Assembly: GCA_038087875.1 (NCBI GenBank)
Contig: CM075989.1
Coordinates: forward strand, 248,001 to 312,000
Direction of reading: 5' to 3'
DNA: 64,000 bases
Source: Malacoraja senta
Taxonomy: Eukaryota
Under the pieces are notes generated by a model. That model was given only the letters and a program-made list of their open reading frames with translations, did not search any database and was not told the DNA's origin. Of the stretch, positions 5,663 through 57,091 are shown piece after piece. Position 1 is the stretch's first letter, and each line of letters starts with the position of its first letter. The position numbers and the translations under genes were made by a program.

Positions 5663-5855
5663 TGATTGATTGATATATTTTTATACTTTTTATTTCGAAC
5701 AATTAAAAAAAAAGAAAAGAAAAGATGAAAATGAATAATAAATAAATGAAAATTATATATATACATATATATATACATAAGTACATACACACATACATAC
5801 TTATACATGTACATATATACATACATACATATACACACATACACATATACATAAT
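5663..5855 (-). mobile_element. 3' tail/UTR of Crack-like (L2/CR1 group) LINE
   Basis: (TGAT)n tail, AATAAA on the minus strand and AT/AC-rich UTR; TGGAT is duplicated at ~5658-5662 and ~18507-18511 around the reassembled element. Confidence 0.6.
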
Positions 5856-6873
5856 ATGTCAGATGTGGGAGGTCATGGAGTTTGATAGCCCTCCAGACGT
5901 TCACATCTGTGTCAGGTGCGTAGAGATGGGGTTCCTAAGGGACCGTGTTAGGAACCTGGAGCAGCAGCTCGATGACCTCTGTCTGATCAGGGAGAGTGAG
6001 GAGGTCATAGAAAAGAGTTATAGGGAGGTGGCCACTCCAAGACCACGGGAGGCAGACAAGTGGGTCACGGTTAGGAAGGGCAAGGGGCAGAGGCAGGGAC
6101 TAGTGAGTACCCCGGTGGCTGTACACCTTGAAAATAAGTACTCCTGTTTGAGTACTGTTGAGGGAGACAGCCTTCCTGCGGGTAGCAACAGCGGCCGGGC
6201 CTCCGGCACAGAGACCAGCCCTATTGCTCAGAAGGGTAGGGAAAGGAAGAGGAGGGCAATAGTAATAGGGGACTCCAGTCTGAAGAAGGGTTTCGGCCCG
6301 AAACGTTAGCTATTTCCTTCGCTCCATAGATGCTGCTGCACCTGCTGAGTTTCTCCAGCATTTTTGTGTACCTGTAATAGGGGACTCTATGGTTAGGGGG
6401 TCAGATAGGCGATTCTGTGGACGCAGTCAGGAGACCCGAATGGTAGTTTGCCTCCCTGGTGCCAGGGTCAGGGATGTGTCTGAACGCGTCCAAGATATCC
6501 TGAAATCGGAGGGAGAGGAGCCTGAGGTTGTGGTACATATAGGTACCAATGACCATAGGTAGAAAAAGAGAAGAGGTCTTGAAAGGAGAATTTAGGGAGT
6601 TGGGAGGAGAGTTAAGGAGATGGTCTACAAAGGTAACAATCTCAGGATTACTGCCTGTGCCACGTGACGGTGAGAGTAGGAATGGTGAGGTGGAGGATAA
6701 ATGCGTGGCTGAGGAACTGGTGCAGCGGGCAGGGATTCAAATTTCTGGATCATTGGGATTTCTTTTGGGGAAGGAGTGACCTGTACAGAAAGGACGGGTT
6801 GCACTTGAACCCGAGGGGGACCAATATCCTGGCGGGGAGATTTGCAAAGGCTACTGGGGAGACTTTAAACTAG
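5856..6873 (+). pseudogene. CR1-B ORF1 (CxxC zinc finger/coiled coil plus SGNH/GDSL esterase), disrupted
   Basis: HICVRC..LEQQLDDL, VIGDS, VHIGTND and DGLH motifs; interrupted by the insertion at 6276-6373 and a frameshift. Confidence 0.85.
6276..6373 (+). mobile_element. 98-bp Penelope-derived insertion with minimal hammerhead ribozyme core
   Basis: 14-bp TSD GTAATAGGGGACTC at 6262-6275 and 6374-6387; CTGAAGA-A-GGG-TTTCGG-CCC-GAAAC at 6280-6304; absent from the paralogue at ~17190-17210. Confidence 0.8.
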
Positions 6874-6878
6874 AACGG

Positions 6879-9575
6879 TTGGGGGTTGGGACTCAAATAG
6901 AGAAAGCTAGTGAAAAATGTGGGAGGCAGGAGGCAGAGAAGGGAAGCACTCGGACCCAAAATGTAGGGGAGAAAGAAGAAAAAGATAATAAACAGAGAAT
7001 AAGTGGTGGTGGGTTTCTTAAATGTGTATATTTTAATGCTAGGAGCATTGTAAGAAAGGTGGATGAGCTTAGAGCCTGGATTGACACCTGGAAGTATGAT
7101 GTTGTGGCGATCAGTGAAACATGGTTGCAGGAGGGCTGTGATTGTCAAATAAATATTCCTGGATTTCGTTACTTCAGGGGTGATAGAATTGGAGGGGCAA
7201 GAGATGGGGGTGTTGCATTGCTTGTCAAGGAAGATATTACAGCAGTGCTTTGGCAGGATAGATTAGAGGGCTCGTCTAGGGAGGCTATTTGGGTGGAACT
7301 GAGAAATGGGAAAGGTGTAGCAACACTTATAGGGGTGTATTATAGACCGCCAAATGGGGAGCGAGAATTGGAAGAGCAAATATGTAAGGAGATAGCAGAT
7401 ATTAGTAGTAAGCACAAGGTAGTGATTGTGGGAGATTTCAATTTTCCACACATAGACTGGGAAACACATTCTGTAAAAGGGCTGGATGGTTTGGAGTTTG
7501 TAAAATGTGTGCAAGATAGTTTTTTGCAGCAATACATAGAGGTACCTACAAGAGAAGGGGCAGTGCTGGACCTCCTGTTAGGAAATGAGACAGGGCAGGT
7601 GGCGGAGGTATGCGTCGGGGAGCACTTCGTGTCCAGTGATCACAATACCATTAGTTTCAATATAATTATGGAGAGGGTCAGAACTGGACCTAGGGTTGAG
7701 ATTTTTGTTTGGAGAAAGGCTAACTTTGAGGAGATGCGAAAGGATTTAAAAGGAGTGAATTGGGACATGTTGTTTTATGGGAAGGATGTAGAAGAAAAAT
7801 GGAGGACATTTAAGGGTGAAATTTTAAGAGTACAGAATCTTTATGTCCCTGTTCGGTTGAAAGGAAATAGTAAAAAATGGAAAGAGCCATGGTTTTCAAG
7901 GGAAATTGGACACTTGGTTCCGAAAAAGAGAGAGATCTACAATAATTATAGGCAGCATGGAGTAAATGAGATGCTTGAGGAGTATAAAGAATGTAAAAAG
8001 AATATTAAGAAAGAAATTAGAAAAGCTAAAAGAAGATATGAGGTTGCTTTGGCAGGTAAGGTGAAAGTAAATCCAAAGGGTTTCTACAGCTATATTAATA
8101 GCAAAAGGATAACAAGGAATAAAATTGGTCCATTAGAGAGTCAGAGTGGACAGCTATCTGCAGAGCGAAAAGAGATGGGGGAGATATTGAACAATTTCTT
8201 TTCTTCGATATTCACGAAGGAGAAGGATATGGAATTATGTGAGGTAAGGGAAACGAGCAGAGTAGCAATGGAAACTGTGAGATTCAAAGAAGAAGAGGTG
8301 CGGACACTTTTGAAAAATATGAAAACGGATAAGTCTCCAGGTCCTGACAGGATATTCCCTGGGACATTGTGGGAAGTTAGTGTAGAAATAGCAGGGGCTA
8401 TGACAGAAATATTTCAAATGTCATTAGAAACGGGAATAGTGCCGGAGGATTGGCGTACTGCGCATGTTGTTCCGTTGTTTAAAAAGGGTTTGAAGAGTAA
8501 ACCTAGCAATTATAGACCTGTTAGTTTGACGTCAGTGGTGGGCAAATTAATGGAAAGGATATTTAAAGATAATATATATAAGCATCTGGATAAGCAGGGT
8601 CTGATTAGGAACAGTCAACATGGATTTGTGCCTGGAAGGTCATGCTTGACTAATCTTCTTGAATTTTTCGAAGAGGTTACTAGGGAAATTGATGAGGGTA
8701 AAGCAGTGGATGTTGTCTATATGGACTTCAGTAAGGCCTTTGACAAGGTTCCTCATGGAAGGTTGGTTAAGAAGATTCAATTGTTGGGTATTAATGGTGG
8801 AGTAGCAAGATGGATTCAACAGTGGCTGAATGGGAGATGCCAGAGAGTAATGGTGGATGGCTGTTTGTCAGGTTGGAGGCCGGTGACTAGTGGGGTACCA
8901 CAGGGGTCTGTGTTGGGTCCACTGTTGTTTGTCATGTACATCAATGATCTGGATGAAGGTGTGGAAAATTGGATTAGTAAGTATGCAGATGATACTAAGA
9001 TAGGTGGTGTTGTGGATAATGAAGTAGATTTTCAAAGTCTACAGAGAGATTTAGGCCATTTGGAAGAGTGGGCTGAAAGATGGCAGATGGAGTTTAATGC
9101 TGACAAATGTGAGGTGCTACATCTCGGCAGGACAAATCAAAATAGGACGTACACGGTAAATGGTAGCGAATTGAGGAATGCAGTTGAACAGAGGGATCTA
9201 GGAATAACTGTGCATAGTTCCCTGAAGGTGGAATCTCATGTAGATAGGGTGGTAAAGAAAGCTTTTGGTGTGCTGGCCTTTATAAATCAGAGCATTGAAT
9301 ATAGAAGTTGGGATGTAATGTTAAAATTGTACAAGGCATTGGTGAGGCCAATTCTGAAGTATGGAGTACAATTTTGGTCGCCTAATTATAGGAAGGATGT
9401 CAACAAAATAGAGAGAGTACAGAGGAGATTTACTAGAATGTTGCCTGGGTTTCAGCAACTAAGTTACAGAGAAAGGTTGAACAAGTTAGGTCTTTATTCT
9501 TTGGAGCGCAGAAGGTTAAGAGGGGACTTGATAGAGGTCTTTAAAATTATGAGCGGGTTAGACAGAGTGGGTTAG
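6879..9575 (+). CDS. CR1-B ORF2, endonuclease/reverse transcriptase (no in-frame AUG before the EN domain; C-terminus continues to 9829 after a small indel)
   Basis: [42 protein letters not shown] and YADD in one 898-aa ORF. Confidence 0.92.
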   Translation: MGVGTQIEKASEKCGRQEAEKGSTRTQNVGEKEEKDNKQRISGGGFLKCVYFNARSIVRKVDELRAWIDTWKYDVVAISETWLQEGCDCQINIPGFRYFRGDRIGGARDGGVALLVKEDITAVLWQDRLEGSSREAIWVELRNGKGVATLIGVYYRPPNGERELEEQICKEIADISSKHKVVIVGDFNFPHIDWETHSVKGLDGLEFVKCVQDSFLQQYIEVPTREGAVLDLLLGNETGQVAEVCVGEHFVSSDHNTISFNIIMERVRTGPRVEIFVWRKANFEEMRKDLKGVNWDMLFYGKDVEEKWRTFKGEILRVQNLYVPVRLKGNSKKWKEPWFSREIGHLVPKKREIYNNYRQHGVNEMLEEYKECKKNIKKEIRKAKRRYEVALAGKVKVNPKGFYSYINSKRITRNKIGPLESQSGQLSAERKEMGEILNNFFSSIFTKEKDMELCEVRETSRVAMETVRFKEEEVRTLLKNMKTDKSPGPDRIFPGTLWEVSVEIAGAMTEIFQMSLETGIVPEDWRTAHVVPLFKKGLKSKPSNYRPVSLTSVVGKLMERIFKDNIYKHLDKQGLIRNSQHGFVPGRSCLTNLLEFFEEVTREIDEGKAVDVVYMDFSKAFDKVPHGRLVKKIQLLGINGGVARWIQQWLNGRCQRVMVDGCLSGWRPVTSGVPQGSVLGPLLFVMYINDLDEGVENWISKYADDTKIGGVVDNEVDFQSLQRDLGHLEEWAERWQMEFNADKCEVLHLGRTNQNRTYTVNGSELRNAVEQRDLGITVHSSLKVESHVDRVVKKAFGVLAFINQSIEYRSWDVMLKLYKALVRPILKYGVQFWSPNYRKDVNKIERVQRRFTRMLPGFQQLSYRERLNKLGLYSLERRRLRGDLIEVFKIMSGLDRVG

Positions 9576-9950
9576 ACGTGGATAAGCTTTTCCCATTGAG
9601 AGTAGGGAAGATTCAAACAAGGGGACATGACTTGAGAATTAAGGGACAGAAGTTTAGGGGGAACATTAAGGGGAACTTCTTTACTCAGAGAGTGGTAGCT
9701 GTGTGGAATGAGCTTCCAGTGGAAGTGGTGGAGGCAGGTTCGATGTTATCCTTTAAAAATAGATTGGATGGGTATATGGACGGGAAAGGAATGGAGGGTT
9801 ATGGTCTGAGTGCAGGTAGATGGGACTAGGGGGAAGTATTTATTTTTAATTAAAAAAAAATTTAAAATTTTTTTTAAAATGTTCGGCACGGACTTGAAGG
9901 GCCGAGATGGCCTGTTTCCGTGCTGTTATGGTTATATGGTTATATGGTTA

Positions 9951-16710: not shown

Positions 16711-17643
16711 GTTTAAAGTCTCCCCAGTAGCCTTTGCAAATCTCCCCGCCAGGATATTGGTCCCCCTCTTGCTCAAGTGCAACCCGTCCTTTCTGTACAG
16801 GTCACACCTTCCCCAAAAGAGGTCCCAATGATCCAGAAATTTGAATCCCTGCCCGCTGCACCAGTTCCTCAGCCACGCATTTATCCTCCACCTCACTCCA
16901 TTCCTACTCTCACCGTCGCGTGGCACAGGTAGTAATCCTGAGATTGTTACCTTTGTAGTCCTTCTCCTTAACTCTCCTCCCAACTCCCTAAATTCTCCTT
17001 TCAAGACCTCTTCTCTTTTTCTACCTATGTCATTGGTACCTATGTGTACCACAACCTCAGGCTCCTCTCGCTCCGATTACAGGATATCTTGGACGCGTTC
17101 AGACACATCCCTGACCCTGGCACCAGGGAGGCAAACTACCATCCGGGTCTCCTGACTGCATCCACAGAATCGCCTATCCGACCCCCTAACCATAGAGTCC
17201 CCTATTACTATTGCCCTCCTCTTCTTTTCCCTACCCTTCTGAGCAATAGGGCTGGTCTCTGTGCCGGAGGCCCGGCCGCTGTTGCTACCCGCAGGAAGGC
17301 TGTCCCCCTCAACAGTACTCAAACAGGAGTACTTATTTTCAAGGTGTACAGCCACCGGGGTACTCACTAGTCCCTGCCTCTGCCCCTTGCCCTTCCTAAC
17401 CATGACCCACTTGTCTGCCTCCCGTGGTCTTGGAGTGGCCACCTCCCTATAACTCTTTTCTATGACCTCCTCACTCTCCCTGATCAGACAGAGGTCATCG
17501 AGCTGCTGCTCCAGGTTCCTAACACGGTCCCTTAGGAACCCCATCTCTACGCACCTGACACAGATGTGAACGTCTGGAGGGGTATCAGACTCCATGACCT
17601 CCCACATCTGACATCCAGAACAGTAAACTGCCCTGGCCCTCAT
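16708..17643 (-). pseudogene. CR1-B ORF1, complete length with one premature stop (17077-17079)
   Basis: MRARAVYCSGC..HICVRC, coiled coil, GDS, GTND and DGLH. Confidence 0.88.
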
Positions 17644-21796: not shown

Positions 21797-21992
21797 TAAT
21801 AATAAGTAGAATCAATAAAAGGAGACCATATCTTTAAAAATTGCTCTGATTTTCCTGCAAAGACGAGTCTCATATCTTAAAGATGTAGCTTCAAAGACAT
21901 GTTTGTAATCCACATTTTGAGAGTTGGGGTAGAAGCATTTTTCCAAAATTTAAGTATACGTTTTTTGCCATTATCAGTGCGATGCTTGCAGT

Positions 21993-22883
21993 ATGTGGGA
22001 GGTCAAGGACACCGCTGGTGCCTCTGGCTGCTACAAATGCAAGAAGTGCATCCAGGTAGAGCTCCTGAAGGGCCGTGTTGGGGAACTGGAGAAGCAAGTG
22101 GATGACCTCCGCTTCGTCCGAGAAACGGAGTCGTTCCTCGACAAGTCCTACAGTACGATTGTTACACCTAAGGTACTGGAAGAGAGAAGGTGGGAGACGG
22201 TGAGAAAGGGAGGGAAGCATGGAATGCCAACGTCCCCGGGTGTTGTACCTCTTGTGAACAGGTTCACCCGCTTAGAAGCTGTTGGGACAGAAGACGTGTT
22301 TACACTGAGCGGCGGACTGGCTTGCGATGCGAATAGGGCTGTTGAGTCAAAACCAAAAAGGCCTAAGGCAGGCAACGCCATTGTAGTGGGAGACTTGATT
22401 GTGAGAGGTACGGACAGGAGTTTCTGTGGCAACAGACGGGATGCGAGGATGGTGTGCTGCCTTCCTGGTGCCAGGATCCAGAATGTCACGGACAGAGTGC
22501 AGAAAATCCTCAAGGGCGAAGGTGAACAGCCGGAAGTGGTAGTGCATGTCGGCACAAACGATGTCGGAAAGAAGAGGATGAATATTCTGCAGCGTGACTT
22601 TAGAGAGCTCGGAAAAATGCTGAAAAGCAGGACCTCCAGGGTTGTTATCTCCGGTTTGCTTCCAGTTCCTCGTGCTGGCGAGAGCAGGAACAGGGAGATA
22701 CGGGACCTGAACGTGTGGCTCAGGAACTGGTGCACGGGGCAGGGATTTAGATTCTTAGATCACTGGGATCTGTTTTGGGGTAAGGGGGAACTGTACAAAA
22801 GGGACGGATTGCATCTTAACAGGTGTGGGACCAGCATTCTGGCAGGCAGGTTTGCCACTGCTACACGGGTGGTTTTAAACTGA
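21993..22883 (+). CDS. CR1 ORF1 (zinc finger/leucine zipper plus SGNH esterase; catalytic GDS reads GDL)
   Basis: CDAC just upstream, then CKKC, coiled coil, VVGDL, HVGTND and DGLH; 296-aa open frame. Confidence 0.85.
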   Translation: MWEVKDTAGASGCYKCKKCIQVELLKGRVGELEKQVDDLRFVRETESFLDKSYSTIVTPKVLEERRWETVRKGGKHGMPTSPGVVPLVNRFTRLEAVGTEDVFTLSGGLACDANRAVESKPKRPKAGNAIVVGDLIVRGTDRSFCGNRRDARMVCCLPGARIQNVTDRVQKILKGEGEQPEVVVHVGTNDVGKKRMNILQRDFRELGKMLKSRTSRVVISGLLPVPRAGESRNREIRDLNVWLRNWCTGQGFRFLDHWDLFWGKGELYKRDGLHLNRCGTSILAGRFATATRVVLN

Positions 22884-23311
22884 ATAAGGGGGGTGGGGTT
22901 TCAAATGGGATAGTCGAGGACGGAGTTAAAGGGAAAGAGAGTAAAGGGATGATTAATGACCCCAGAATTAACGGGAAAGGAAGCTCACAAAGGGATAGGA
23001 GAGTATGGCCAAGTGTAATTGGGATCGATGTGAAAGGTGAGATGCATAAGGAATTAAAAGTATTGTATATGAATGCGCAAAATATAAGAGGTAAAGTAGA
23101 TGAGCTTGAGGCTCAGTTAGATGTTGGTAGTTATGATATTGTGGCGATTACTGTGACGTGGCTGAAGGAGGATCGGGCCCCTGAGAACTTAATATTCAGG
23201 GTTCTACATCCTATAGAAAGGACAGGCAGGTGGGCAGAGGAGGGGGGTAGCTCTGCTGGTGAGGGATGGAATTCAGTCCCTTGCGAGGGAAGACATAGGG
23301 ACTGACGAGGG

Positions 23312-26300
23312 GTGTCGAATGGGATAGTGGAGGATGGAGTTAAAGGGAAAGGGTTTCTTAAATGTGTGAGCGTAGAGACAGAGGAGTGTAAAATGAGGGT
23401 AGAAGCAATAGGTAGCAAGGTGAAAAGTAAAAGTGGAAGACAGACAAAACCAGGGCAAAAATCAAAAAGGGCCACTTTTCAACATAATTGTATAAGGGGT
23501 AAGAGTGTTGTAAAAACAAGCCTGAAGGCTTTGTGTCTCAATGCAAGGAGCATTCGTAATAAGGTGGATGAGTTGAATGTGCAGATAGCTATTAATGACT
23601 ATGATATAGTTGGGATCACGGAGACATGGCTCCAGGGTGACCAAGGCTGGGAGCTGAACATCCAGGGATATTCAATATTCAGGAGGGATAGAGAGAAAGG
23701 AAAAGGAGGTGGGGTAGCATTGATGATTAGAGAGGAGATTAACGCAATGGAAAGGAAGGACATTAGGTTCGAGGATGTGGAATCGGTATGGGTAGAGCTG
23801 CGAAACACTAAGGGGCAGAAAACGCTGGTGGGTGTTGTGTACAGGCCACCTAACAGTAGTAGTGAAGTTGGAGATGGTATCAAACAGGAAATTAGAAATG
23901 CGTGCGACAAAGTCAAAACAGTTATAATGGGTGACTTCAATCTACATATAGATTGGGTGAATCAAATTGGCAGGGGTGCTGAGGAAGAGGATTTTTTGGA
24001 ATGTATGCAGGATAGTTATCTAAATCAACATGTAGAGGAACCAACGAGAGAGCAGGCTATTTTAGACTGGGTATTGAGTAATGAGGAAGGATTAGTTAGC
24101 AGTCTTGTTGTACGTGCCCCCTTGGGCAAGAGTGACCATAATATGGTTGAGTTCTTCATTAGGATGGAGAGTGACATTGTTAATTCAGAAACAATGGTTC
24201 TGAACTTAAAGAAAGGTAACTTTGAGGGTATGAGATATAAATTTGCCATGATTGACTGGCAATTAATTCTAAAAGGGTTGACGGTGGACATGCAATGGAA
24301 GACATTTAAAGACTGCATGGATGAACTACAAAAATTGTTCATCCCAGTTTGGCAAAAGAATAAATCAGGGAAGGTAGTGCATCCGTGGATAACAAGGGAA
24401 ATCAGGGATGGTATCAAAGCGAAAGATGATGCGTACAAATTAGCCAGACAAAGCAGCATACCAGAGGACTGGGAGAAATTCAGAGACCAGCAGAGGAGGA
24501 CAAAGGGCTTAATTAGGAAAGGAAAAATAGATTATGAAAGAAAACTGGCAGGGAACATAAAAACTGACTGCAAAAGTTTTTAAAATATGTAAAAAGAAAG
24601 AGATTAGTTAAAACAAATGTAGGTCCCTTGCAGTCAGAAACAGGTGAGTTGATCATGGGGAACAAGGATATGGCGGACCAATTGAATAACTACTTTGGTT
24701 CCGTCTTCACTAAGGAAGACATAAATAATCTGCCGGAAATAGCAGGGGACCGCGGGTCAAAGGAGTTGGAGGAATTGAGTGAAATCCAGGTTAGTCGGGA
24801 AGTGGTTTTGGGTAAATTGAATGGATTAAAGGCCGATAAATCCCCAGGGCCAGATAGGCTGCATCCCAGAGTACTCAAGGAAGTAGCTCCAGAAATAGTG
24901 GATGCATTAGTAATAATCTTTCAAAATTCTTTAGATTCTGGAGTAGTTCCTGAGGATTGGCGGGTAGCAAACGTAACCCCACTTTTTAAGAAGGGAGGGA
25001 GAGAGAAAACGGGGAATTACAGACCAGTTAGCCTAACATCGGTAGTGGGGAAACTGCTAGAGTCAGTTATTAAAGATGGGATAGCAGCACATTTGGAAAG
25101 TGGTGAAATCATTGGACAAAGTCAGCATGGATTTACGAAAGGTAAATCATGTCTGACGAATCTTATAGAATTTTTCGAGGATGTAACTAGTAGCGTGGAT
25201 AGGGGAGAACCAGTGGATGTGGTGTATCTGGACTTCCAGAAGGCTTTCGACAAGGTCCCACATAAGCGATTAGTATACAAACTTAAAGCACATGGCATTG
25301 GGGGTTCAGTATTGATGTGGATAGAGAACTGGCTGGCAAACAGGAAGCAAAGAGTAGGAGTAAACGGGTCCTTTTCACAATGGCAGGCAGTGACTAGTGG
25401 GGTACCGCAAGGCTCAGTGCTGGGACCCCAGCTATTTACAATATATATTAATGACCTGGATGAGAGAATTGAAGGCAATATCTCCAAGTTTGCGGATGAC
25501 ACTAAGCTGGGGGGCAGTGTTAGCTGTGAGGAGGATGCTAGGAGACTGCAAGGTGACTTGGATAGGCTGGGTGAGTGGGCAAATGTTTGGCAGATGCAGT
25601 ATAATGTGGATAAATGTGAGGTTATCCATTTTGGTGGCAAAAACAGGAAAGCAGACTATTTTCTAAATGGTGGCCGACTAGGAAAAGGGGAGATGCAGCG
25701 AGACCTGGGTGTCATGGTACACCAGTCATTGAAAGTAGGCATGCAGGTGCAGCAGGCAGTGAAGAAAGCGAATGGTATGTTAGCTTTCATAGCAAAAGGA
25801 TTTGAGTATAGGAGCAGGGAGGTTCTACTGCAGTTGTACAGGGTCTTGGTGAGACCACACCTGGAGTATTGCGTACAGTTTTGGTCTCCAAATCTGAGGA
25901 AGGACATTATTGCCACAGAGGGAGTGCAGAGAAGGTTCACCAGACTGATTCCTGGGATGTCAGGACTGTCTTATGAAGAAAGACTGGATAGACTTGGTTT
26001 ATACTCTCTAGAATTTAAGAGATTGAGAGGGGATCTTATAGAAACTTACAAAATTCTTAAGGGGATGGACAGGCTAGATGCAGGAAGATTGCTCCCGATG
26101 TTGGGGAAGTCCAGGACAAGGGGTCACAGCTTAAGGATAAGGGGGAAATCCTTTAAAACCGAGATGAGAAGAACTTTTTTCACACAGAGGGTGGTGAATC
26201 TCTGGAACTCTCTGCCACAGAGGGTAGTCGAGGCCAGTTCATTGGCTATATTTAAGAGGGAGCTAGATGTGGCCCTTGTGGCTAAAGGGATCAGAGGGTA

Positions 26301-26328
26301 TGGAGAGAAGGCAGGTACGGGATACTGA
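23312..26328 (+). pseudogene. CR1-A ORF2 (EN plus RT) with one frameshift near 24583
   Basis: 423-aa EN ORF (LNARSI, TETWL, SDH) plus 566-aa RT ORF ([16 protein letters not shown]). Confidence 0.92.
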
Positions 26329-38131: not shown

Positions 38132-38461
38132 AGATTTTGTGTATGAACCAGCATCTGCAGTTCCTTGTGATAGGGCAACGTTTCAGGCCTACTTGGCTAC
38201 TTGTCAAACTTTGTTCGAGTTGAGAAATGTCATTCTCTAATTTTAGTTAAGCATCCAACAACCTACCTTCCACTCGTTGATTGCGGAATGAATATTGATT
38301 TCTCTAACTTCAAGTAACCCTTACATACCATCTCTCTCCATCCCTCCCTCCCCCGTCATACCAGCTTCAAAGTCGTCCTGTTGAGTCTCACTGTCTGTAA
38401 CTCGATAACCTTAGCATCTGCTTTGTTCTGTCATTTTCACATCTCGCCCTTCCATATCTCC
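38132..38461 (+). mobile_element. Penelope fragment (duplicate of 30291-30618)
   Basis: Near-identical to 30291-30618, including GMNIDFSNFK*. Confidence 0.7.
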
Positions 38462-39950
38462 AATTCCCGCCGTGCCAGATGCAGTTTATCCGGCGGCAGT
38501 CGGCACGCTCGTGTGTGCAGAGGTGGGCCGGTAGTCTGAATAAAATGTACCACTCCGTGGCTGGGGGTTGGTGATCGAAACTGCGGGGTCATAATGTCTG
38601 GGAACGCGGCCAAGATACGTGCGAAGCGGGAGTCCACGGACGACAGGGGCCGTCCCACCGGTTGAGACGAACGCAACGTGATCGGCTCCATCGTAGCGGC
38701 GTTGACCAAGCGCTGACGCCTGACGTCCACTATGAGGGAATGTGCCCGGAGGAAATCGGCCCCGAGCAATGGCTGGGAGACGTCGGCAATGGTGAACTGC
38801 CACGAGAAATGGCAGGAGCCGAACACGATTGGAACCATGCGCACTCCATATGTGCGGATGGGGCTGCCATTCGCCGCGGTGAGGACGGGCCCCTGCTTAC
38901 CGGAACGAATGTCGGCCAGCGAAGGGGGCAGGACGCTGAGCTCCGCTCCAGTATCAACGAGGAAGCGGGTCCCGGAGCGCCGATCCCAGGCGAAGAGGCG
39001 GTGAATTTGGCCGGCCGCCGCGGGAACTATTGGCAGCCGGACCAGGCATTTCCTGGGAACGTGCATGGCTGGCGGCATAGTCGTGCTGCAGCACCCCAGC
39101 GCTGGTGGTAGTAGCACCAGCGCCTCATGTTGGTGTTACTTGAAGCTTGCTGGCTCCTGTTGGTGGTGCCTGCAGCTTGCTGCCGCTGGACTGCAGGTGC
39201 AGTACCCCTCACGGAGGGGGGGGGCGATCTGACGGCCCGTCGGGCTGGAGCTATCACTCCTTCCACAGCTCCCCCGCCCCACCGGAGGAAATCGGGAGCT
39301 GCCGGGGTGACGTCATCGGCACGCCTGCCGACGGCCAGCGCGTTGCCGTCATCAGGGCGCGTCGGCCTCAGCACGTCCCCGTCTCTGCTGACGGCCAGCG
39401 CGCTGACGTCATCAGGGCGCGCCATCCACAGCGCGTCGGCGCGCCTCCCGAAGTCCCTGATGTCGGCGAAGGAGACGTCTGTGAGCTGCAGACGAATGCA
39501 GGCCGGCAGTAGATGCAGGTAAGTGTATTCGAATAGCGGCGTGTGCCCGTCCAGTAGAGCCACCATCTCCTTTAGGAGGCTTGATGGCCGTCGGTCGCCT
39601 AGGCCCTCGATATGCAGGATCCTTGCAGCACGCTCCATCCTACTTAGACCATAAATCTGGAGCAGGAGCTCCTAAGGCCGAGATATTTATCAGTGTCCGG
39701 GGGGGCTGCGAGGAAGTCCGTGACCTCCTCAACCGTGTCCTGGTCGAGAGCCCCCACCAGGCAATAGAAGCGGGTGGCATCGACCGTGATGCCCCGCAGG
39801 TTGAACTGGGCCTCCGCCTGCTGGAACCAGATAAGCGGCCGGGTGGTCCAGAAGGTAGGCAGATTCACCGAGACCGCGTCCAGAGACAGGGCCGGGCCGG
39901 CCTGTGAGGAGGTAGGGCTTTGTCTTCCCTCCATCATGACGCCAATGGAG

Positions 39951-44685: not shown

Positions 44686-44752
44686 AAGCTTTTCACTCCA
44701 CATCACCGTCTATATCTTTTCTGCGACTCACAGTCTGAGGAAGGGTCTCAAC

Positions 44753-47700
44753 ATTTCTGGATCATTGGGACCTCTTTTGTGGAAGGTGCGACCTGTACAA
44801 AATGGATGGGTTGCACTTGAACCTGAGGGGGACCGATATCCTGGCGGGGAGATCTGCAAAGGCTACTGGGGAGACTTTAAACTAGAATGGTTGGGGAGAG
44901 GGACTCAAATAGAGAATGCTATTAGACAGTGTGTGAGGCAGGAGGCATAGAAGGAAAGCACTCAGACCCAACATGTAGGGGGGAAAGAAGAAAACAATAA
45001 TAAACAGAGAATAAGAGGTGGTGGATTCTTAAATGGGTGAGCAGAGAAACAGAGAGGTGTAAAATGCGGGCGGAAGCAACAGGTAGCAAGGTGAAAAGTA
45101 AAAGTGGCAGGCAGACAAATCCAGGGCAAAAATCAAAACGGGCCACTTTTCAACATAATTGTATAAGGGGTAAGAGCATTGTAAAACAAGCCTGAAGACT
45201 TTGTGTCTCAATGCAATCAGCATTCGTAATAAGGTGGATGAGTTGAACGTGCAGATAGCAATTAATGATTATGATATAGTTGGGATCACGGAGACATGGC
45301 TCCAGGGTGACCAAGGCTGGGAGCTGAACATCCAGGGATATTCAATATTCAGGAGGGATAGAGAGAAAGGAAAAGGAGGTGGGGTAGCGTTGCTGTTTAG
45401 AGAGGAGATTAACGCAGTGGAAAGGAAGGACATTAGCTTGGAGGATGTGGAATCGGTATGGGTAGAGCTGCGAAACACTAAGGGGCAGAAAACGCTGGTG
45501 GGTGTTGTGTACAGGCCACCTAGCAGTAGTAGTGAAGTTGGGGATGGCATCAAACAGGAAATTAGAAATGCGTGCAACAAAGGCAAAACAGTTATAATGG
45601 GTGACTTCAATCTACATATAGATTGGGTGAATCAAATTGGCAGGGGTGCTGAGGAAGAGGATTTCTTGGAATGTATGCGGGATAGTTATCTAAACCAACA
45701 TGTAGAGGAACCAACGAGAGAGCAGGCTATTCTAGACTGGGTATTGAGTAATGAGGAAGGGTTAGTTAGCAGTCTTGTTGTGCGTGCCCCCTTGGGCAAG
45801 AGTGACCATAATATGGTTGAGTTCTTCATTAGGATGGAGAGTGACATTGTTAATTCAGAAACAACGGTTCTGAACTTAAAGAAAGGTAACTTTGAGGGTA
45901 TGAGACGTGAATTGGCCAAGATTGACTGGCAATTAGTTCTAAAAGGGTTGACGGTGGATATGCAATGGAAGGCATTTAAAGACTGCATGGATGAACTACA
46001 AAAATTGTTCATCCCAGTTTGGCAAAAGAATAAATCAGGAAAGGTAGTGCATCCGTGGATAACAAGCGAAATCAGGGATAGTATCAAAGCAAAAGATGAT
46101 GCGTACAAATTAGCCAGAAAAGCAGCATACCAGAGGACTGGGAGAAATTCAGAGACCAGCAGAGGAGGACAAAGGGCTTATTTAGGAAAGGGAAAATAGA
46201 TTATGAAAGAAAACTGGCAGGGAACATAAAAACTGACTGCAAACGTTTTTATAGATATGTGAAGAGAAAGAGATTAGTTAAAACAAATGTAGGTCCCTTG
46301 CAGTCAGAAACAGGTGAATTGATCATGGGGAACAAGGATATGGCGGACCAATTGAATAACTACTTTGGTTCCGTCTTCACTAAGGAAGACATAAATAATC
46401 TGCCGGAAATAGCAGGGGGCCGCGGGTCAAAGGAGATGGAGGAACTGAGTGAAATCCAGGTTAGTCGGGAAGTGGTGTTGGGTAAATTGAATGGATTAAA
46501 GGCCGATAAATCACCAGGGCCAGATAGGCTGCATCCCAGAGTACTTAAGGAAGTAGCTCCAAAAATAGTGGAAGCATTAGTGATAATATTTCAAAACTCT
46601 TTAGATTCTGGAGTAGTTCCTGAGGATTGGAGGGTAGCAAACGTAACCCCACTTTTTAAGAAGGGAGGGAGAGAGAAAACGGGGAATTACAGACCAGTTA
46701 GTCTAACATCGGTAGTGGGGAAACTGCTAGAGTCAGTTATTAAAGATGGGATAGCAGCACATTTGGAAAGTGGTGAAATCATTGGACAAAGTCAGCATTG
46801 ATTTATGAAAGGTAAATCGTGTCTGACGAATCTTATAGAATTTTTCGAGGATGTAACTAGTAGAGTGGATAGGGGATAACCAGTGGATGTGTTGTATCTG
46901 GACTTTCAGAAGGCTTTCGACAAGGTACCACATAAGAGATTAGTATACAAACTTAAAGCACACGGTATTGGGGGTTCAGTATTGATGTGGATAGAGAACT
47001 GGCTGGCAAACAGGAAGCAAAGAGTAGGAGTAAACGGGTCCTTTTCACAATGGCAGGCAGTGAACAGTGGGGTACCGCAAGGCTCAGTGCTGGGACCCCA
47101 GCTATTTACAATTTATATTAATGAACTGGATGAGGGAATTGAAGGCAACATCTCCAAGTTTGCAGATGACACTAAGCTGGGGGGCAGTGTTAGCTGTGAG
47201 GAGGATACTAGGAGACTGCAAGGTGACTTGGATAGGCTGGGTGAGTGGGCAAATGTTTGGCAGATGCAGTATAATGTGGATAAATGTGAGGTTATCCACT
47301 TTGGTAGCAAAAACAGGAAAGCAGACTAATATCTAAATGGTGGCCGATTAGGAAATGGGGAGATGCAGCGAGACCTGGGTGTCGTGGTACACCAGTCATT
47401 GAAAGTAGGCATGCAGGTGCAGCAGCAGTGAAGAAAGCGAATGGTATGTTAGCTTTCATAGCAAAAGGATTTGAGTATAGGAGCAGGGAGGTTCTACTGC
47501 AGTTGTACAGGGTCTTGGTGAGACCACACCTGGAGTATTGCGTACAGTTTTGGTCTACAAATCTGAGGAAGGACATTATAGCCATAGAGGGAGTGCAGAG
47601 AGGGTTCACCAGACTGATTCCTGGGATGTCAGGACTTTCATATGAAGAAAGACTGGATAGACTTGGCTTATACTCGCTAGAATTTAGGAGATTGAGAGGG

Positions 47701-48680: not shown

Positions 48681-49351
48681 TATGTTTGTCTGTCTGCAGC
48701 ACCCCCTGTCTATTGAAGAGCTCAGTACAGTGCCTCTTGACCTCCAACTGTAGTGCCTGCTGGCACCTATCCATGTTCCCTACAGATGCTGCCCGACCCG
48801 CTGAGTTACTCCAGCACTCTGTGACCTTCTTCCCATGATGCATGCCGCCCCCATGTGACTCAGCGGCAATCACAGGCAAGGCGGTGCCAGTAGAGCACCG
48901 GTCGTACATGTGGCAGTCGTCACAGCGCAGGGCGGGGGTACATCATGGCACAGGGCGGCTGGCTGGCGGGCAGCTCGACGCTGATCTCGGATTCTGGGCG
49001 CCCCGAGGTCTCCCACTTGCTTCCTCACCCCCCTTCTCCCCTCTCCCCCTCCGTTCTCCCCATCTCCTCACTTCCACCATCCTCATCCCACTTCCCCCCT
49101 TGCCTCCTCACCATCTCTCTCCTTCCCCCCTCATCTATCCCCCCTTCAAGCACTAGTAATGTTTACGCGTTAGTAATGTCCTGTTTTTCAGCTTGTTGAC
49201 CCTCTGTGTTCCCCTCTTGCAGGGTTTAGGAGCCATTGCTGTGGACGGAGAGAAGGGGTACGTGAGCGGCAATAGACGGCGGCCAGGGTGCCGGTGAGCC
49301 CCCCCTCCATCTGCTCAGTATGCGCTCTGAGCTTTGAGGGGCTGAGCTTCG

Positions 49352-50575
49352 ATGGAGGACAACATGACGGGGCACAAAAAGGAGAAGCGTTACGAGTGTG
49401 ACGTGTGTGGCAAGGCCTGGCAGTACCCAAGCCGGCTGGAGATCCACCGACGGGTGCACACGGGAGAACGCCCCTTCAACTGCTCTGACTGCGGCAAGAG
49501 CTTCAAGACGACGCAGGAACTGAAGCTCCATCGGCGAGTGCACACGGGCGAAAAGCCCTATGGCTGCTCCACGTGTGGCAAGAAATTTGCCAAGTTGTCT
49601 GGGCTGCAGGTGCACGGGCGGGTGCACACGGGTGAGAAGCCCTATGACTGCTCCACCTGCGGCAAGAGCTTTGCCCGGTTGTCGGGGCTGCGGGAGCACC
49701 GGCGGGTGCATAGCAGTGAGCGGCCCTTCACCTGCTACGACTGCGGCAAAGGCTTCAAGTGGTCCATGCACCTGAAGGTGCACAGGCGCCTGCACACTGG
49801 GGAGCGGCCCTACACCTGCAGTGACTGCGGCATGGGCTTCACCTGCTCCAACAGCCTTCTGGAGCACCAGCGCACCCACACCGGCGAGCGCCCCTACACC
49901 TGCGCCCAGTGCGGCCAGGGCTTCATCCGCTCCACCAAACTGCTGGAGCATCAGCGCACCCACACTGGCGAGCGCCCCTTCACCTGCGCCCAGTGCGGCA
50001 AGGGCTTCACCCGCTCCAACAACCTGCTGGAGCACCAGCGTATCCACACCGGCGAGCGCCCCTATACCTGCACCCAGTGCGGCAAGGGCTTCACCCGCTC
50101 CCACCGCCTGCTGGAGCACCAGCGCACCCACACCGGTGAGCGCCCCTTCACCTGCGCTCAGTGCGGCAAGGGCTTCACCCGCTCCACCTATCTGCTGTCC
50201 CATCAGCGGGTGCACGCTGGCGACTGTCCCTTCCCCAGCCCGGTGTGTGGAGAGCACTTTGCCATGGCCTCCCATTCCCTGTCTCTCCAGCGCGTGCACA
50301 CAAGTGGCCAGCCATACGACTGCCCGTATTGCGGTGAGGCGTTTGACTGCTCGCGGGCGTTGCGGCTGCACCGGCGGGACCACGCCGGCGATCTACTGCT
50401 CCCATCGCGGCAAGCATTTCAAGAGGGCACGGGGACTGCGGGAGCACCAGCGGATACACAGACCATGATGGAGAAGGTGAGAAGAGACTACGATGGCAGT
50501 ATAAAACTGGCCCATCATTGCGTGTGGATGTACAATGATGCCGCTGGAAGTGCATCCTCTGTTGGGCCTTTTTGA
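49352..50575 (+). CDS. C2H2 Kruppel-type zinc-finger protein; 11 intact fingers, 1 degenerate and 1 frameshifted; no effector domain
   Basis: Tandem CxxC..HxxxH fingers with TGE(R/K)P linkers; pyrimidine tract plus TGCAG acceptor ending at 49222; the second ATG (49364) is the one conserved in the paralogue. Confidence 0.9.
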   Translation: MEDNMTGHKKEKRYECDVCGKAWQYPSRLEIHRRVHTGERPFNCSDCGKSFKTTQELKLHRRVHTGEKPYGCSTCGKKFAKLSGLQVHGRVHTGEKPYDCSTCGKSFARLSGLREHRRVHSSERPFTCYDCGKGFKWSMHLKVHRRLHTGERPYTCSDCGMGFTCSNSLLEHQRTHTGERPYTCAQCGQGFIRSTKLLEHQRTHTGERPFTCAQCGKGFTRSNNLLEHQRIHTGERPYTCTQCGKGFTRSHRLLEHQRTHTGERPFTCAQCGKGFTRSTYLLSHQRVHAGDCPFPSPVCGEHFAMASHSLSLQRVHTSGQPYDCPYCGEAFDCSRALRLHRRDHAGDLLLPSRQAFQEGTGTAGAPADTQTMMEKVRRDYDGSIKLAHHCVWMYNDAAGSASSVGPF

Positions 50576-53299: not shown

Positions 53300-56200
53300 C
53301 TATGTTTGTAATAATTCTATAAATGCAGACCACGTCAGGTCGAAGTGATCTGGTTTACCTGCTAGGAGGAGTCTTATCTCTTCAAGGTGTAGTGTTTCAA
53401 ACATATTTGAAATCCACATATTTATAGTTGGTATTGGAGCCTTCTTCCAAAATTTTAGAATTAGCTTTTTTCCAGTTATTAACCCATAATCCATTAATTT
53501 CTTTTGAAACACATTTAGTTCTGGATCATCTTCCGTTATTCCGAAGATAATCCATTCTGCTTTGGGTATCAGTCTTGTTTTAAATAACTTTGTAAAGATT
53601 TCAAAAATTTCATTCCAAAATTTTTGAATTTTTGTACAGAAGACAAATGAGTGCGCTATAGTTGCTTCTTGGGATTGACATTTATCACAAATAGATGATA
53701 CGTTTGGGAAAATTTTATGAATTTTAGTTTTCGAATAATATAATCTATGTAAAATTTTAAATTGTATTAAAGTGTGTCTTACATTAATCGAGCATTTATG
53801 TACTTTTAATAAGTATTCATTCCAACTTTCCTTTGAAATTTTAATAGCTAACTCTTGTTCCCAGTCTCTTCTGATACCCTCCGTAGATGGTATTTGTACA
53901 TTTAAGATAATATTGTACAAATATGATATTAAGTTTGCTGATTCCGCTTTTGTCTGCATTGCCTCGTCCAGTACATCTGCTGGGTTATTATGATGATCTT
54001 TTATATATTTTTTCAAATAGTCGCATATTTGAAAATATTTAAAATATTGATTATTTCCGAGTTTATATTTTATTTGTAATTGTTGAAATGAAAGTAATTT
54101 TCCAGTTTCATACAAGTCACCAAGCGTTTTAATTCCTAGTCTATCCCATTGTGTATAAGCTTTATCTATAATAGAAGGACTAAACGAAGGGTTATTGACT
54201 ATAGGTAATAAAAGTGATAAGTTTCTTAATTTTAAATTTTGTTTTATTTGTTTCCAAATACGGATTGTACTATGAATAATTGGGTTCTTATTATAGTTTA
54301 TGTTATTCAATTTCATTGGAGAGAGGAGGATCGCTCCAATGTTTCTAGAGGAGCAATCCTCTTTCTCCATTACAATCCAGTCTACTTGCTGGGCGGAGTT
54401 ATCCATCAGTTGAATCATGTTTTTAATATTTACTGACCAATAATAATACATAAAATTGGGTAGTGCTAGACCCCCCAATACTTTAGATTTATTCAGATGG
54501 GTTTTTTGTATTCTATGTGATTTATAGTCCCATATAAAATTAGTGATATCTGAGTCGAGTTTTTTAAAAAACTTCTTAGGTAAGTATATAGGAATTGATT
54601 GAAATAGGTATAAAATTTGTGGTAAAAAGATCATTTTTATTGCGTTTATTCGGCCTATTAAAGACATCGGAAGCGTTTTCCAGAATTTAATTAATGTATT
54701 CAGTTTATTAAGTAGGGGGTCAAAATTTGCCCTGAGCATACCTTGATATGTTCTGGTAATTTCGATTCCCAAATATTTAAATTTTTCTGTAGCTATTTTA
54801 AAAGGGAATTTTAAAAGATGTGTTGAATCTTTCGGTTTTATTGACATAATTTCACTTTTATTCCAATTTATTCTATATCCAGAAAAAGATCCGAAGTCTT
54901 CAATTAAATTTAATATATTTGGTATAGTGATTTGAGGTTTTGTAATATACAATAATATATCATCCGCGTATAAAGATATTTTATTATATGAGTCTTTAGT
55001 ATTATATCCATGAATATCAGGGTGTATTCTAATTTTTTCTGCTAGCGGTTCAATAATGAGAGCAAACAGCTGTGGTGATAATGAGCATCCTTGTCTATTT
55101 CCCCTTGATAGTTGAAATTTCGAGGATAATATGTTATTAGTAAGTATTCTAGCTGTAGGTTTGTTATATAGTAACTTAATCCATAAAATAAAATTCTCTC
55201 CCAGTTGAAATTTTTGTAATACTTTATCCATATAATTCCATTCTACTTGATCAAATGCTTTTTCAGCATCCAGCGAAATAATTGATAATTCTTGATCTTC
55301 AGATTTGTGTGAGTGCATTATGTTGAGTAGACGTCTCATATTATTAGAAGAGTATCTCTTAGGGATAAACCCTGTCTGATCTGGGTTTATTAATTTACTA
55401 ATGTATTTACTTAATCTTCTGGCTAATGTTTTCGCTAATATTTTTTGATCTGTGTTTAACAATGCTATAGCTCTATATGAGCCAGGTTCTTCTAAATCCT
55501 TATTTTTCTTAGGTATTAATGTAATCGTTGATTCCGCTAATGTATCAGGTAGTATTCGTTTTTTAAAAGCGTATTGGTACATTTTTTGTAATCTTGGTAT
55601 TATTTTATCATAAAAGTTTTTATAAAATTCATTAGTAAATCCATCAGGGCCTGGTGTTTTTCCATTTTTTAGTGAGTTTATTGTATCTTCTAATTCCTTA
55701 ATTGAGATTTGTGCACCCAGTTCCTCTTGTTCCTTCAGCTCTAACTTTGGAAGATTACAGGTATCCAAGAACTTTGTGATATTATTGGAATCAATTATCG
55801 TTTTAGATGTATACAAATTCTCGTAAAATTGCGCAAATCTTTTATTAATATCCTTCGGTGTTGTTAATAATTCCCCTTTATCTGATTTGATCTTTGGTAT
55901 AGTATGTTCCTTTTCTCGTTTTTTTAGCTGGCGAGCCAAAAGTTTATGCGGTTTATCCCCAAATTCAAAGTGCTCTTGTTTTGTAATTTGAAAAAGTCTT
56001 ATAAGTTTGGCAGATAATAATTTATTTAATTTAAATTTTAAAATTATTATTTTATTATGTTTATCTATTGTTGGATCTTTAGCATTATCTATATCCATTT
56101 GTCTAATAAGTTCTTCTAACTGTCTTTGTTCATTCTTATTCTTTTTATTTTGAAAAGCTTGATATGAAATTATAATACCCCTAATGTATGCTTTAAAAGA

Positions 56201-57091
56201 TTCCCAAAGTAAAGTAGGCGATATATCTGAAGTATCATTTGTTTGAAAAAAGACCTCCATTTGTTCTTTTAAATATATACTCGCTTGTGGATCTTTTAAA
56301 ATTTGAGAGTTAAATCTCCAGAATGAATTATTCTTAGACAATCCTTCCAGTTTTAAAAAGAAAGTTAGTGGAGAATGGTCTGAAATTGAATTTGTATGAT
56401 ATATTGCATTAGATGTTTGGGGGATTAATTTTGTATCCAGCAGAAAGTAGTCTATACGTGAGTATGTCTTATGTACCATTGAGTAAAACGAATATTCCCT
56501 GCCAGTTGGATTCACAATTCTCCAAACATCTGCTATATTAGTGTTGTTTATGTAGGTATTGAGGAGTTCCCCAGTTTTCGATTTCATATTCCCTCTCTGT
56601 TTTTGACTTGATTTATCTAAGTACGGGTCTAAAACACAATTAAAGTCTCCGCCTATTATAACATTTTGATAGTTTGACTCTGCAATTATATTGAAGATTT
56701 TATTGAAAAAGTGGGGGTTATCAAAGTTAGGGGCATATATATTTACCAAAGTAAGTGGAGTGTCATGGATTTCTCCATTAACTATTAGGTATCTCCCTTC
56801 TATATCTGTTATAATATTCTTTGCTTTAAATGGTATACCTTTTCTTATGATAATTGACGTGCCTCTAGATTTTGAAGTGAATGAAGAGTGGTATGTTTGA
56901 CCTATCCATTTCGCCCTCAGCCTAACTTGGTCCTGAGGTTTTAGGTGTGTTTCTTGTAGGAAGGTAATGTCAGAATTATACATTTTTAGCTGAGCTAATA
57001 TCTTACCCCTTTTGATAGGTTCATTAATACCTCTTATATTCCAACTACAAAATAAGACTCCTCCTAGGTTCTTTTGTGTGGTGTCATGCAT
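53300..57091 (-). CDS. L1 ORF2p (APE endonuclease, reverse transcriptase, CCHC domain)
   Basis: SWNIRG, LQETH, YSRIDY, SDHSP, LDAEKAFD, RQGCSLSP, YADD and CDKC..H...C in one uninterrupted frame. Confidence 0.96.
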   Translation of the reverse strand: MHDTTQKNLGGVLFCSWNIRGINEPIKRGKILAQLKMYNSDITFLQETHLKPQDQVRLRAKWIGQTYHSSFTSKSRGTSIIIRKGIPFKAKNIITDIEGRYLIVNGEIHDTPLTLVNIYAPNFDNPHFFNKIFNIIAESNYQNVIIGGDFNCVLDPYLDKSSQKQRGNMKSKTGELLNTYINNTNIADVWRIVNPTGREYSFYSMVHKTYSRIDYFLLDTKLIPQTSNAIYHTNSISDHSPLTFFLKLEGLSKNNSFWRFNSQILKDPQASIYLKEQMEVFFQTNDTSDISPTLLWESFKAYIRGIIISYQAFQNKKNKNEQRQLEELIRQMDIDNAKDPTIDKHNKIIILKFKLNKLLSAKLIRLFQITKQEHFEFGDKPHKLLARQLKKREKEHTIPKIKSDKGELLTTPKDINKRFAQFYENLYTSKTIIDSNNITKFLDTCNLPKLELKEQEELGAQISIKELEDTINSLKNGKTPGPDGFTNEFYKNFYDKIIPRLQKMYQYAFKKRILPDTLAESTITLIPKKNKDLEEPGSYRAIALLNTDQKILAKTLARRLSKYISKLINPDQTGFIPKRYSSNNMRRLLNIMHSHKSEDQELSIISLDAEKAFDQVEWNYMDKVLQKFQLGENFILWIKLLYNKPTARILTNNILSSKFQLSRGNRQGCSLSPQLFALIIEPLAEKIRIHPDIHGYNTKDSYNKISLYADDILLYITKPQITIPNILNLIEDFGSFSGYRINWNKSEIMSIKPKDSTHLLKFPFKIATEKFKYLGIEITRTYQGMLRANFDPLLNKLNTLIKFWKTLPMSLIGRINAIKMIFLPQILYLFQSIPIYLPKKFFKKLDSDITNFIWDYKSHRIQKTHLNKSKVLGGLALPNFMYYYWSVNIKNMIQLMDNSAQQVDWIVMEKEDCSSRNIGAILLSPMKLNNINYNKNPIIHSTIRIWKQIKQNLKLRNLSLLLPIVNNPSFSPSIIDKAYTQWDRLGIKTLGDLYETGKLLSFQQLQIKYKLGNNQYFKYFQICDYLKKYIKDHHNNPADVLDEAMQTKAESANLISYLYNIILNVQIPSTEGIRRDWEQELAIKISKESWNEYLLKVHKCSINVRHTLIQFKILHRLYYSKTKIHKIFPNVSSICDKCQSQEATIAHSFVFCTKIQKFWNEIFEIFTKLFKTRLIPKAEWIIFGITEDDPELNVFQKKLMDYGLITGKKLILKFWKKAPIPTINMWISNMFETLHLEEIRLLLAGKPDHFDLTWSAFIELLQT

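Follow-up and report, generated by a model that had tools for sequence, protein, structure and literature searches.

The sequence analysed here is a stretch of 64,000 nucleotides (nt) from the skate Malacoraja senta (assembly GCA_038087875.1, contig CM075989.1, positions 248,001 to 312,000 of the forward strand), referred to below as the window. It reads as eukaryotic DNA rich in retroelements, among which are copies of CR1-type long interspersed nuclear elements (LINEs), and it is the junction between the two open reading frames of these elements, ORF1 and ORF2, that concerns us. Pfam searches assigned Exo_endo_phos (E = 1.6e-15) and RVT_1 (E = 9e-36) domains to the ORF at 6780-9575, and Lipase_GDSL_2 and OSK domains (SGNH/GDSL esterase) to the ORF at 21954-22883. 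The latter is the ORF1 of a family named B; the ORF1 of a second family, A, is homologous to it, the Pfam esterase match having been obtained on the family-B protein. The elements are provisionally designated CR1-type by domain content (an endonuclease-reverse transcriptase ORF2 and an esterase ORF1). The C-terminal stretch of ORF2, FFTQRVV..WN.LP, we take to resemble that of chicken CR1.

The window was searched by tblastn with the two esterase ORF1 proteins and the ORF2 protein. Exactly four 3' ends of esterase ORF1s were found, at 6870, 16711 (minus strand), 22880 and 44882. The first belongs to a family-A copy on the plus strand. Its ORF1 (5857-6870), with a Cys-rich/coiled N-terminal part followed by the SGNH/GDSL esterase, is broken into three frames: alignment by tblastn with the intact 311-residue ORF1 of another family-A locus (L003), which ends in GETLN, recovered the pieces 5857-6285, 6374-6553, 6555-6686 and 6685-6870. 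A TA/TG-rich stretch of low complexity (5700-5860, plus strand; translation YIHIYIHK...) lies just before the start of this ORF1. The ORF1 ends with the heptamer T_TTA_AAC (6864-6870), directly followed by the stop codon TAG (6871-6873); a G tract, GGGGGTTGGG here and GGGGGGAGGG in most family-A copies, occupies 6881-6890 and starts 11 nt past the heptamer. ORF2 lies in the -1 frame relative to ORF1. This frame is open from 6780, and from the heptamer on (6864-9575) it comprises a linker (6864-7016), the endonuclease (approximately 7032-7643) and the reverse transcriptase (approximately 8496-9140); the 3' end of ORF2 has been moved to another frame (9545-9829).

The second family-A copy is on the minus strand: its ORF1 (16711-17643) has one internal stop and is followed by an ORF2 that extends to approximately 14017. 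Its heptamer is found at 16717-16711, the TAG stop at 16710-16708 and the G tract at approximately 16700-16691. The family-B ORF1 (21954-22880, plus strand) is open for 309 codons, codes for a GDSL esterase and ends in VVLN; the heptamer (22874-22880) with its TGA stop takes up 22874-22883 and the G tract 22888-22898. From this heptamer the -1 frame (22874-23305, plus strand) runs into the N-terminal part of the endonuclease, where it is cut by a TGA at 23303-23305. The same frame then contains a second junction-like relic (approximately 23306-23360) and a complete endonuclease/reverse transcriptase ORF (23306-24583, then 24568-26328). The fourth copy, of a family named C (44738-44885, plus strand), consists of a decayed ORF1 tail truncated at its 5' end near 44738, with heptamer at 44876-44882, TAG stop at 44883-44885 and G tract at approximately 44893-44902; stops interrupt its -1 frame. 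The B and C copies have counterparts of 97-100% identity on the same contig (C13:191540, 156524 and 70339; C13:470935), which suggests local segmental duplication that included damaged elements.

At each of the four junctions the reading phase is NNT-TTA-AAC-stop, the stops being TAG, TAG, TGA and TAG in the order 6864, 16711, 22874 and 44876, and in 4/4 ORF1 ends on the final base of the heptamer. An earlier note, made from the sequence alone, had reported TTTAAAC in this phase before the stop at all four junctions (6864-6870, 22874-22880 and 44876-44882 on the plus strand, 16711-16717 on the minus strand) and had read it as a site of -1 ribosomal frameshifting; the four sites were recovered as described. 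The note's attribution of the 22874 copy to a divergent family with a TGA stop was borne out as well, the ORF1 protein being about 50% identical to that of the 6864 family. So were its statements that the -1 frame at 6864 leads into ORF2 (it is open to 9575), that this ORF2 has no AUG before 7668 (the first in-frame ATG lies there, 268 codons on and past the endonuclease domain), that the -1 frame at 22880 enters an endonuclease N-terminus, and that runs of G follow the heptamer in every window copy. The heptamer is not enriched in the window: 19 occurrences were seen against 17.4 expected, and 19 was reached in 41 of 100 shuffles. The signal is therefore one of position and phase, not of count.

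Searches of the skate's own 1.94 Gb assembly identified five families of these elements, named A, B, C, D and F. All five have T_TTA_AAC with an adjacent stop (TAG in A and C, TGA in B, TAA in D and F), and in all five ORF2 is in the -1 frame. Family A, which includes the 6864 and 16711 copies, is the youngest: 40 scored copies are 99-100% identical, the heptamer with TAG was present in 30 of the 30 loci fetched, and several loci have an uninterrupted ORF1 of 311 codons ending in GETLN. For family B the heptamer was intact in 26 of 30 loci. The window copy of this family and its near-duplicates on the same contig are rearranged, with the -1 frame cut at +429; in loci L035, L055, L058 and L060 the frame is open for 1194-1689 nt, into the endonuclease and further.

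Family C showed heptamer and stop in 6/6 copies. Most of its matches (38 of 40) begin at query positions 39-56, as expected of a family without ORF1, but this was ruled out by fuller copies (L186-L191), in which the ORF1 tail and junction resemble those of family A and the -1 frame leads, over 106 open codons, into an endonuclease of another type. When 20 ORF1 ends were sampled in the genome, 19 were readable and the junction module was present in all 19. Nine of the 20 belonged to family D (tail GEDLN, stop TAA), and in five of these nine the -1 frame was open to the endonuclease. Family F (tail ERSLN, stop TAA) had the module in 5/5 copies and a -1 frame open for 61 codons to the start of the endonuclease in all of them; in one copy (L196) a stop occurs farther along this frame, beyond the endonuclease start.

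Mosaic structure is seen among the families, in the window at 22880-23360 and 44738-45200. In family C an A-like stretch (ORF1 tail, junction and some 50 codons of linker) precedes an ORF2 N-terminus that is that of family D (…GCKMRVEAIGSK…), and in locus L152 a B-type ORF1 and junction are joined to the same D-type ORF2. The -1 frame is continuous from the heptamer in each of these recombinants.

Loci from other organisms were obtained by searching metagenome contigs with a profile (A1) built from 25 ORF1 proteins, using patterns inside the esterase domain and away from the junction. CR1-type ORF1 ends were found in ten loci, with TTTAAAC in nine (L061, L063, L065, L066, L067, L071, L074, L084 and L085) and GTTAAAC in L064. 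The ORF1s are 26-39% identical to the query and some 30-35% identical to those of the window, and the stop directly follows the heptamer in 9/10, L085 having TGC at this position. Among ten metagenome loci showing both genes, endonuclease or reverse transcriptase was in the -1 frame in seven; the exceptions were L063 and L078, in which the ORF1 frame is broken, and L075. As a negative control, about 26 bacterial SGNH-hydrolase ORFs retrieved with the same profile were inspected, and none had a TTA AAC end. No further CR1 DNA was found in viral contigs, and genome contigs yielded only bacterial SGNH hydrolases.

Locus L075 is of a different kind: it has no heptamer, its ORF1 ends in ...SSQ, and after a spacer of about 300 nt ORF2 follows in the same frame as ORF1. 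Together with L068, L078 and L137, esterase-bearing LINE-like loci that also have no heptamer, it probably represents a different, perhaps L2-like, group in which ORF2 is expressed by another route.

Twelve junctions could be aligned without gaps, because the ORF1 tail past the conserved DGLHL block is 26 codons long; thirteen junctions were used for the counts of G tracts and AUG codons given below. Over the 75 nt upstream of the heptamer, mean pairwise identity is 45% (range 17-80%), and at third codon positions the commonest base averages 53%. Bases 2-7 of the heptamer do not vary (100% conservation), nor does the first base of the stop; at base 1, 11 junctions have T and one has G. The leucine codon of the heptamer is TTA in 12/12, against 12.9% of leucine codons in the same ORF1s, and the asparagine codon is AAC in 12/12, against 50.6% of asparagine codons. 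The preceding codon ends in T in 11/12, compared with 23.6% of third positions, whereas the amino acid it specifies varies (T, V, D, H, S or A). The stop adjoins the heptamer in 11/12, L085 again being the exception. Constraint at synonymous positions, for which the earlier note had pointed to the TTA and AAC codons and the preceding T, is thus seen in the alignment; a need for Leu-Asn in the protein would fix neither these codons nor the last base of the codon before them.

A wider sample of ORF1 tails was obtained at the protein level. Searches with an ORF1 query and a profile against 1.84 billion representative proteins returned 207 proteins, 139 of which contained the last esterase block followed by a tail of 15-45 residues; these correspond to 130 distinct tails. 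The tail ends in LN in 77/130 and in N in 94/130. Named carriers of LN tails are skates, rays, sharks, coelacanth, a mormyrid fish (teleost), turtles, a snake and a swallow, the relatives in turtle and swallow being named 'SGNH hydrolase-type esterase domain-containing' proteins. In 76 of the 77 LN tails the preceding residue is one that an NNU codon can specify, while the residues incompatible with NNU (K, E, Q, M and W) make up 16% of the ten positions before it.

Two minor classes of tail end in other residues. Nine tails end in GN, with Q before GN in 9/9 (P0110-P0121, P0180 and P0189), and two end in KN, with S before KN in both (P0141 and P0194). QGN would fit CAG GGA AAC, that is, a heptamer G_GGA_AAC, and SKN would fit UCA AAA AAC, a heptamer A_AAA_AAC. 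DNA for these two classes was found neither in the skate genome, where the best match (43% identity) was to families A, B and D, nor in genome contigs or viral contigs.

Some gene models among the proteins run through the junction. The stingray model P0037 follows ORF1 to ...REG; the next residues, FKL..., belong to the -1 frame at the junction, and from there the model extends to the endonuclease. In stingray, too, the -1 frame is thus open at this point, although the model as such is probably artefactual, produced by an indel or by frame correction. Such models were rejected as natural fusions: P0037 is the -1 frame read through, P0062 and P0210 are deletion or intron models, and P0103 and P0130 are host-gene chimeras.

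The openness of the -1 frame was assessed by counting stops in 11 lineages (303 codons) over the interval between the heptamer and the first in-frame ATG or, where there is no ATG, the start of the endonuclease. The -1 frame contains 0 stops in 303 codons, and the other two frames contain 30 and 35. The first ATG of the -1 frame lies at about codon 3-4 after the heptamer in D, L066, L071 and L063, and at codon 22-63 in L074, L064, F, B and C. Family A and L061 have no ATG before the endonuclease; in the window copy of family A, and in 22/30 loci of that family, the first one comes at codon 268. Upstream, the -1 frame opens 16-25 nt before the end of the ORF1 stop in L074, L064 and L061, in L074 only two codons before the heptamer, and no ATG occurs in that stretch. 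Entry into the ORF2 frame is therefore placed at the heptamer or within a few codons of it.

Downstream of the heptamer, 12 of 13 junctions have five or more consecutive G, the run starting at +8 to +11, whereas a random 9-nt window in the same loci has such a run with a frequency of 0.054; the thirteenth junction has GGGAGGTGGGGGG from +11. In the -1 frame the central glycine codon of the run is GGG in 12/13, compared with 33% of glycine codons elsewhere in ORF2, and the run extends past this codon into adjoining ones, which specify different amino acids. Both features point to a constraint on the RNA, to which conservation of the glycine may contribute.

The heptamer, its phase, the adjacent stop, the open -1 frame leading into ORF2 and the G tract are thus conserved features of these junctions, and they are likely to reflect -1 programmed ribosomal frameshifting at U_UUA_AAC that yields an ORF1-ORF2 fusion. 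This is the reading proposed in the earlier note, and the comparative evidence supports it. According to this model, a ribosome translating ORF1 would reach its last two sense codons, UUA-AAC; the P site would then hold tRNA-Leu and the A site tRNA-Asn, and both tRNAs would re-pair one base back, on UUU-AAA. The next codon would then consist of the C and the first two bases of the ORF1 stop, giving CUA or CUG (Leu in both cases), and reading would continue through a linker of variable length (29-106 codons) to the endonuclease and reverse transcriptase. Slippage would be the exception: most ribosomes would end at the adjacent stop, giving ORF1 protein alone; a minority would make the ORF1-linker-endonuclease-reverse transcriptase fusion, which may be the functional form of the ORF2 protein. 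A high ratio of ORF1 to ORF2 products would result, comparable to that of retroviral gag and gag-pol. The run of 5-7 G, starting 8-11 nt past the heptamer, lies roughly where frameshift stimulators usually begin, about 5-9 nt past the slip site, and is a candidate stimulator.

Several observations weigh against this reading. No stable hairpin is predicted downstream of the heptamer: for 60 and 100 nt at 11 junctions, z scores of the minimum free energy ranged from -2.7 to +1.6 and were mostly near 0. Over the following 300 nt, no stretch complementary to the G tract was found (duplex z scores of -1.4 to +1.25, C content of 9-23%), and a two-tetrad G-quadruplex is predicted in only 4/11 junctions. 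A hairpin or pseudoknot stimulator was therefore rejected, folding being near the shuffled level and the search for a duplex partner no better than shuffled controls; an Rfam search at the junction gave three chance-level matches (E of at least 1.1) and no frameshift-element family. Of the G-rich stimulator postulated by the earlier note, what stands is a conserved element at the right place, which may stimulate slippage. The efficiency of frameshifting could be very low.

Other difficulties lie in the material itself. All four window copies are damaged, so that the argument rests on families and not on individual copies; the frames are open in better-preserved copies of the same families elsewhere in the genome. 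The copies of families A-D used for the stop count were chosen for open frames, and the count does not include L084, whose -1 frame contains a stop. Nor are the lineages independent, an estimated 9-10 being separate among the 13 junctions, which makes any probabilities rough; for this reason no formal probability is given. Furthermore, L068, L075 and many of the protein tails have no such motif, which is accordingly not universal among esterase LINEs. Finally, possible start codons occur close to the ORF1 stop in part of the material: in 4 of 13 lineages the -1 frame has an AUG no more than four codons from the heptamer (D, as UAAUG, and L066, L071 and L063, where it is the fifth codon of this frame), and UUG, GUG or CUG is found near the stop in several others.

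These start codons bear on a different explanation, namely that the small ribosomal subunit stays on the RNA after termination, perhaps tethered there by the G tract, and resumes translation in the -1 frame from an AUG or near-cognate codon beside the stop, producing a separate ORF2 protein. Human L1 makes its ORF2 protein by an unconventional termination-reinitiation for which an AUG is not needed. In Bombyx SART1, as described in one study, reinitiation uses a UAAUG stop-start overlap and requires downstream RNA structure (PMC3708506). Both elements, like CR1, have a bicistronic LINE RNA from which ORF2 is rarely made, and family D shares the UAAUG of SART1. Reinitiation would also account for a stop that always adjoins the heptamer, and the open -1 frame fits it equally well if entry takes place within a few codons of the stop. 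On the other hand, neither human L1 nor SART1 is known to involve a slippery heptamer, and in CR1 it is the heptamer that is invariant and not the AUG: the start-like codon varies in kind and position, and no AUG is found at or near the stop in A, B, C, F, L061, L064, L067, L074 and L084 (9/13), so that a stop-start AUG of the SART1 type is limited to four lineages. Nor does reinitiation give a reason for an invariant U_UUA_AAC at synonymous sites, for its phase or for the base before it, or for the QGN and SKN tails, which fit other canonical heptamers. We therefore consider it improbable as the general mechanism; initiation or reinitiation could occur in the lineages with an AUG close to the stop, and may coexist there with frameshifting.

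It is very unlikely that the constraint acts on the protein alone, with a C-terminal Leu-Asn needed for esterase function or assembly, the heptamer as a by-product and ORF2 expressed by an unrelated route. The frequency of LN among the distinct tails is in line with such a constraint, as is the constant length of the tail past the DGLHL block, which is 26 residues in 63 of the 77 LN tails. However, the codons for Leu and Asn are fixed well beyond their usage in the same genes, T precedes them whatever the amino acid, and the dozen residues just before LN are highly variable (alignment A1). The fixed G run past the stop and the open -1 frame would also be left without explanation. A change of frame at the RNA level, by polymerase slippage on T3A3, the only repetitive feature at the junction, or by editing or splicing that unites ORF1 and ORF2 in some transcripts, can practically be set aside, since known runs for transcriptional slippage are far longer than three and such a change would not require the phasing of the heptamer with the ORF1 codons, which is invariant.

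A broader version of the frameshifting model would hold that CR1-group LINEs make their endonuclease and reverse transcriptase only as a frameshift fusion, kept for several hundred million years; that the unpaired G tract is a stimulator of a new kind, acting as a G-quadruplex, through a bound protein (possibly the ORF1 protein) or by contact with the ribosome; and that related lineages have exchanged the heptamer for G_GGA_AAC or A_AAA_AAC. This extension is conceivable, although on present evidence we find it doubtful as a whole.

The proposed arrangement has parallels in known systems. In Rous sarcoma virus the slip site directly abuts the gag stop. As in gag-pol of retroviruses and other long terminal repeat (LTR) elements, the CR1 junction has an X_XXY_YYZ heptamer at the very end of an upstream structural gene, with the polymerase gene in the -1 frame, and as proposed it would give much of the first protein and little fusion. 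Unlike gag-pol, CR1 is a non-LTR LINE; its upstream protein is of esterase type and not a Gag, and neither a protease nor a predicted pseudoknot or hairpin is present. U_UUA_AAC is the slip site of coronavirus ORF1a/1b, and equine arteritis virus uses G_UUA_AAC. The CR1 heptamer is identical to the former, and the variant in L064 is the arterivirus form. In these viruses, in contrast to CR1, a pseudoknot lies a few bases downstream and the stop of the 0 frame is not always adjacent; CR1 has a G tract without a predicted partner. Frameshifting at nsp2TF of porcine reproductive and respiratory syndrome virus (PRRSV) depends for its stimulation on a linear, C-rich motif to which proteins bind. 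This is a possible analogy for CR1, where the candidate stimulator would likewise be short and unstructured and lies about 10 nt past the slip site, with the difference that it is G-rich. Among non-LTR elements, TRE5-A and TRE3-A of Dictyostelium require a -1 frameshift for ORF2, according to a legend in a review (PMC5911963); they belong to another clade and host and their ORF1 is not an esterase.

No description of frameshifting in CR1 was found in the full-text literature searched, an earlier remark in the original papers on CR1 structure being possible. The paper of Odon et al. 2013 (PMC3708506) calls the mechanism of ORF2 translation 'not clear' and does not contain the word 'frameshift'; of the non-LTR elements, the portion of a recoding review available to us (PMC5009743) mentions HeT-A and TART only. 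A 2026 survey of the CR1 group, a 2014 study of ORF1 modules and a 2014 paper on amniote CR1 use neither the word 'frameshift' nor the word 'overlap' (PMC13343379, PMC4120745 and PMC4316615).

The window contains other coding sequences besides the CR1-type copies. An L1-like LINE lies on the minus strand at 53300-58965. Its ORF2 has 1266 codons with endonuclease, reverse transcriptase and a weak zf-RVT match, and an upstream ORF of 356 codons gave a weak coiled-coil-like match only; the two frames, measured stop to stop, are about 800 nt apart and the junction has no heptamer. A C2H2 zinc-finger array is found at 49346-50575 (plus strand, 409 codons open), together with an antisense frame at 49226-50392 (minus strand, 388 codons open). 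Fragments of LTR-type retroelements, with aspartyl protease and with RNase H plus the RT-RNaseH domain, are located at 38437-39135 and 62597-63691, both on the minus strand.

Among the retrotransposons of birds, reptiles and many fishes, CR1-group LINEs are the most common. How ORF2 of a LINE is translated from a bicistronic RNA is a long-standing question that has been worked out for few elements, such as human L1 and SART1, and frameshifting at U_UUA_AAC, if true, would answer it, in a way open to direct test, for a group of elements that is among the most abundant in vertebrate genomes. It would also add a large class of sites in cellular genomes to a list of frameshift sites dominated by viruses, and would provide a naturally occurring example of a G-tract element placed where a stimulator would lie. 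For annotation, the ORF2 of these elements need not begin at an AUG, and gene finders give odd models at the junction, as for P0037. For the elements themselves, frameshifting would mean that esterase, endonuclease and reverse transcriptase are covalently fused in one protein, which would bear on cis-preference and on the function of the ORF1 esterase.

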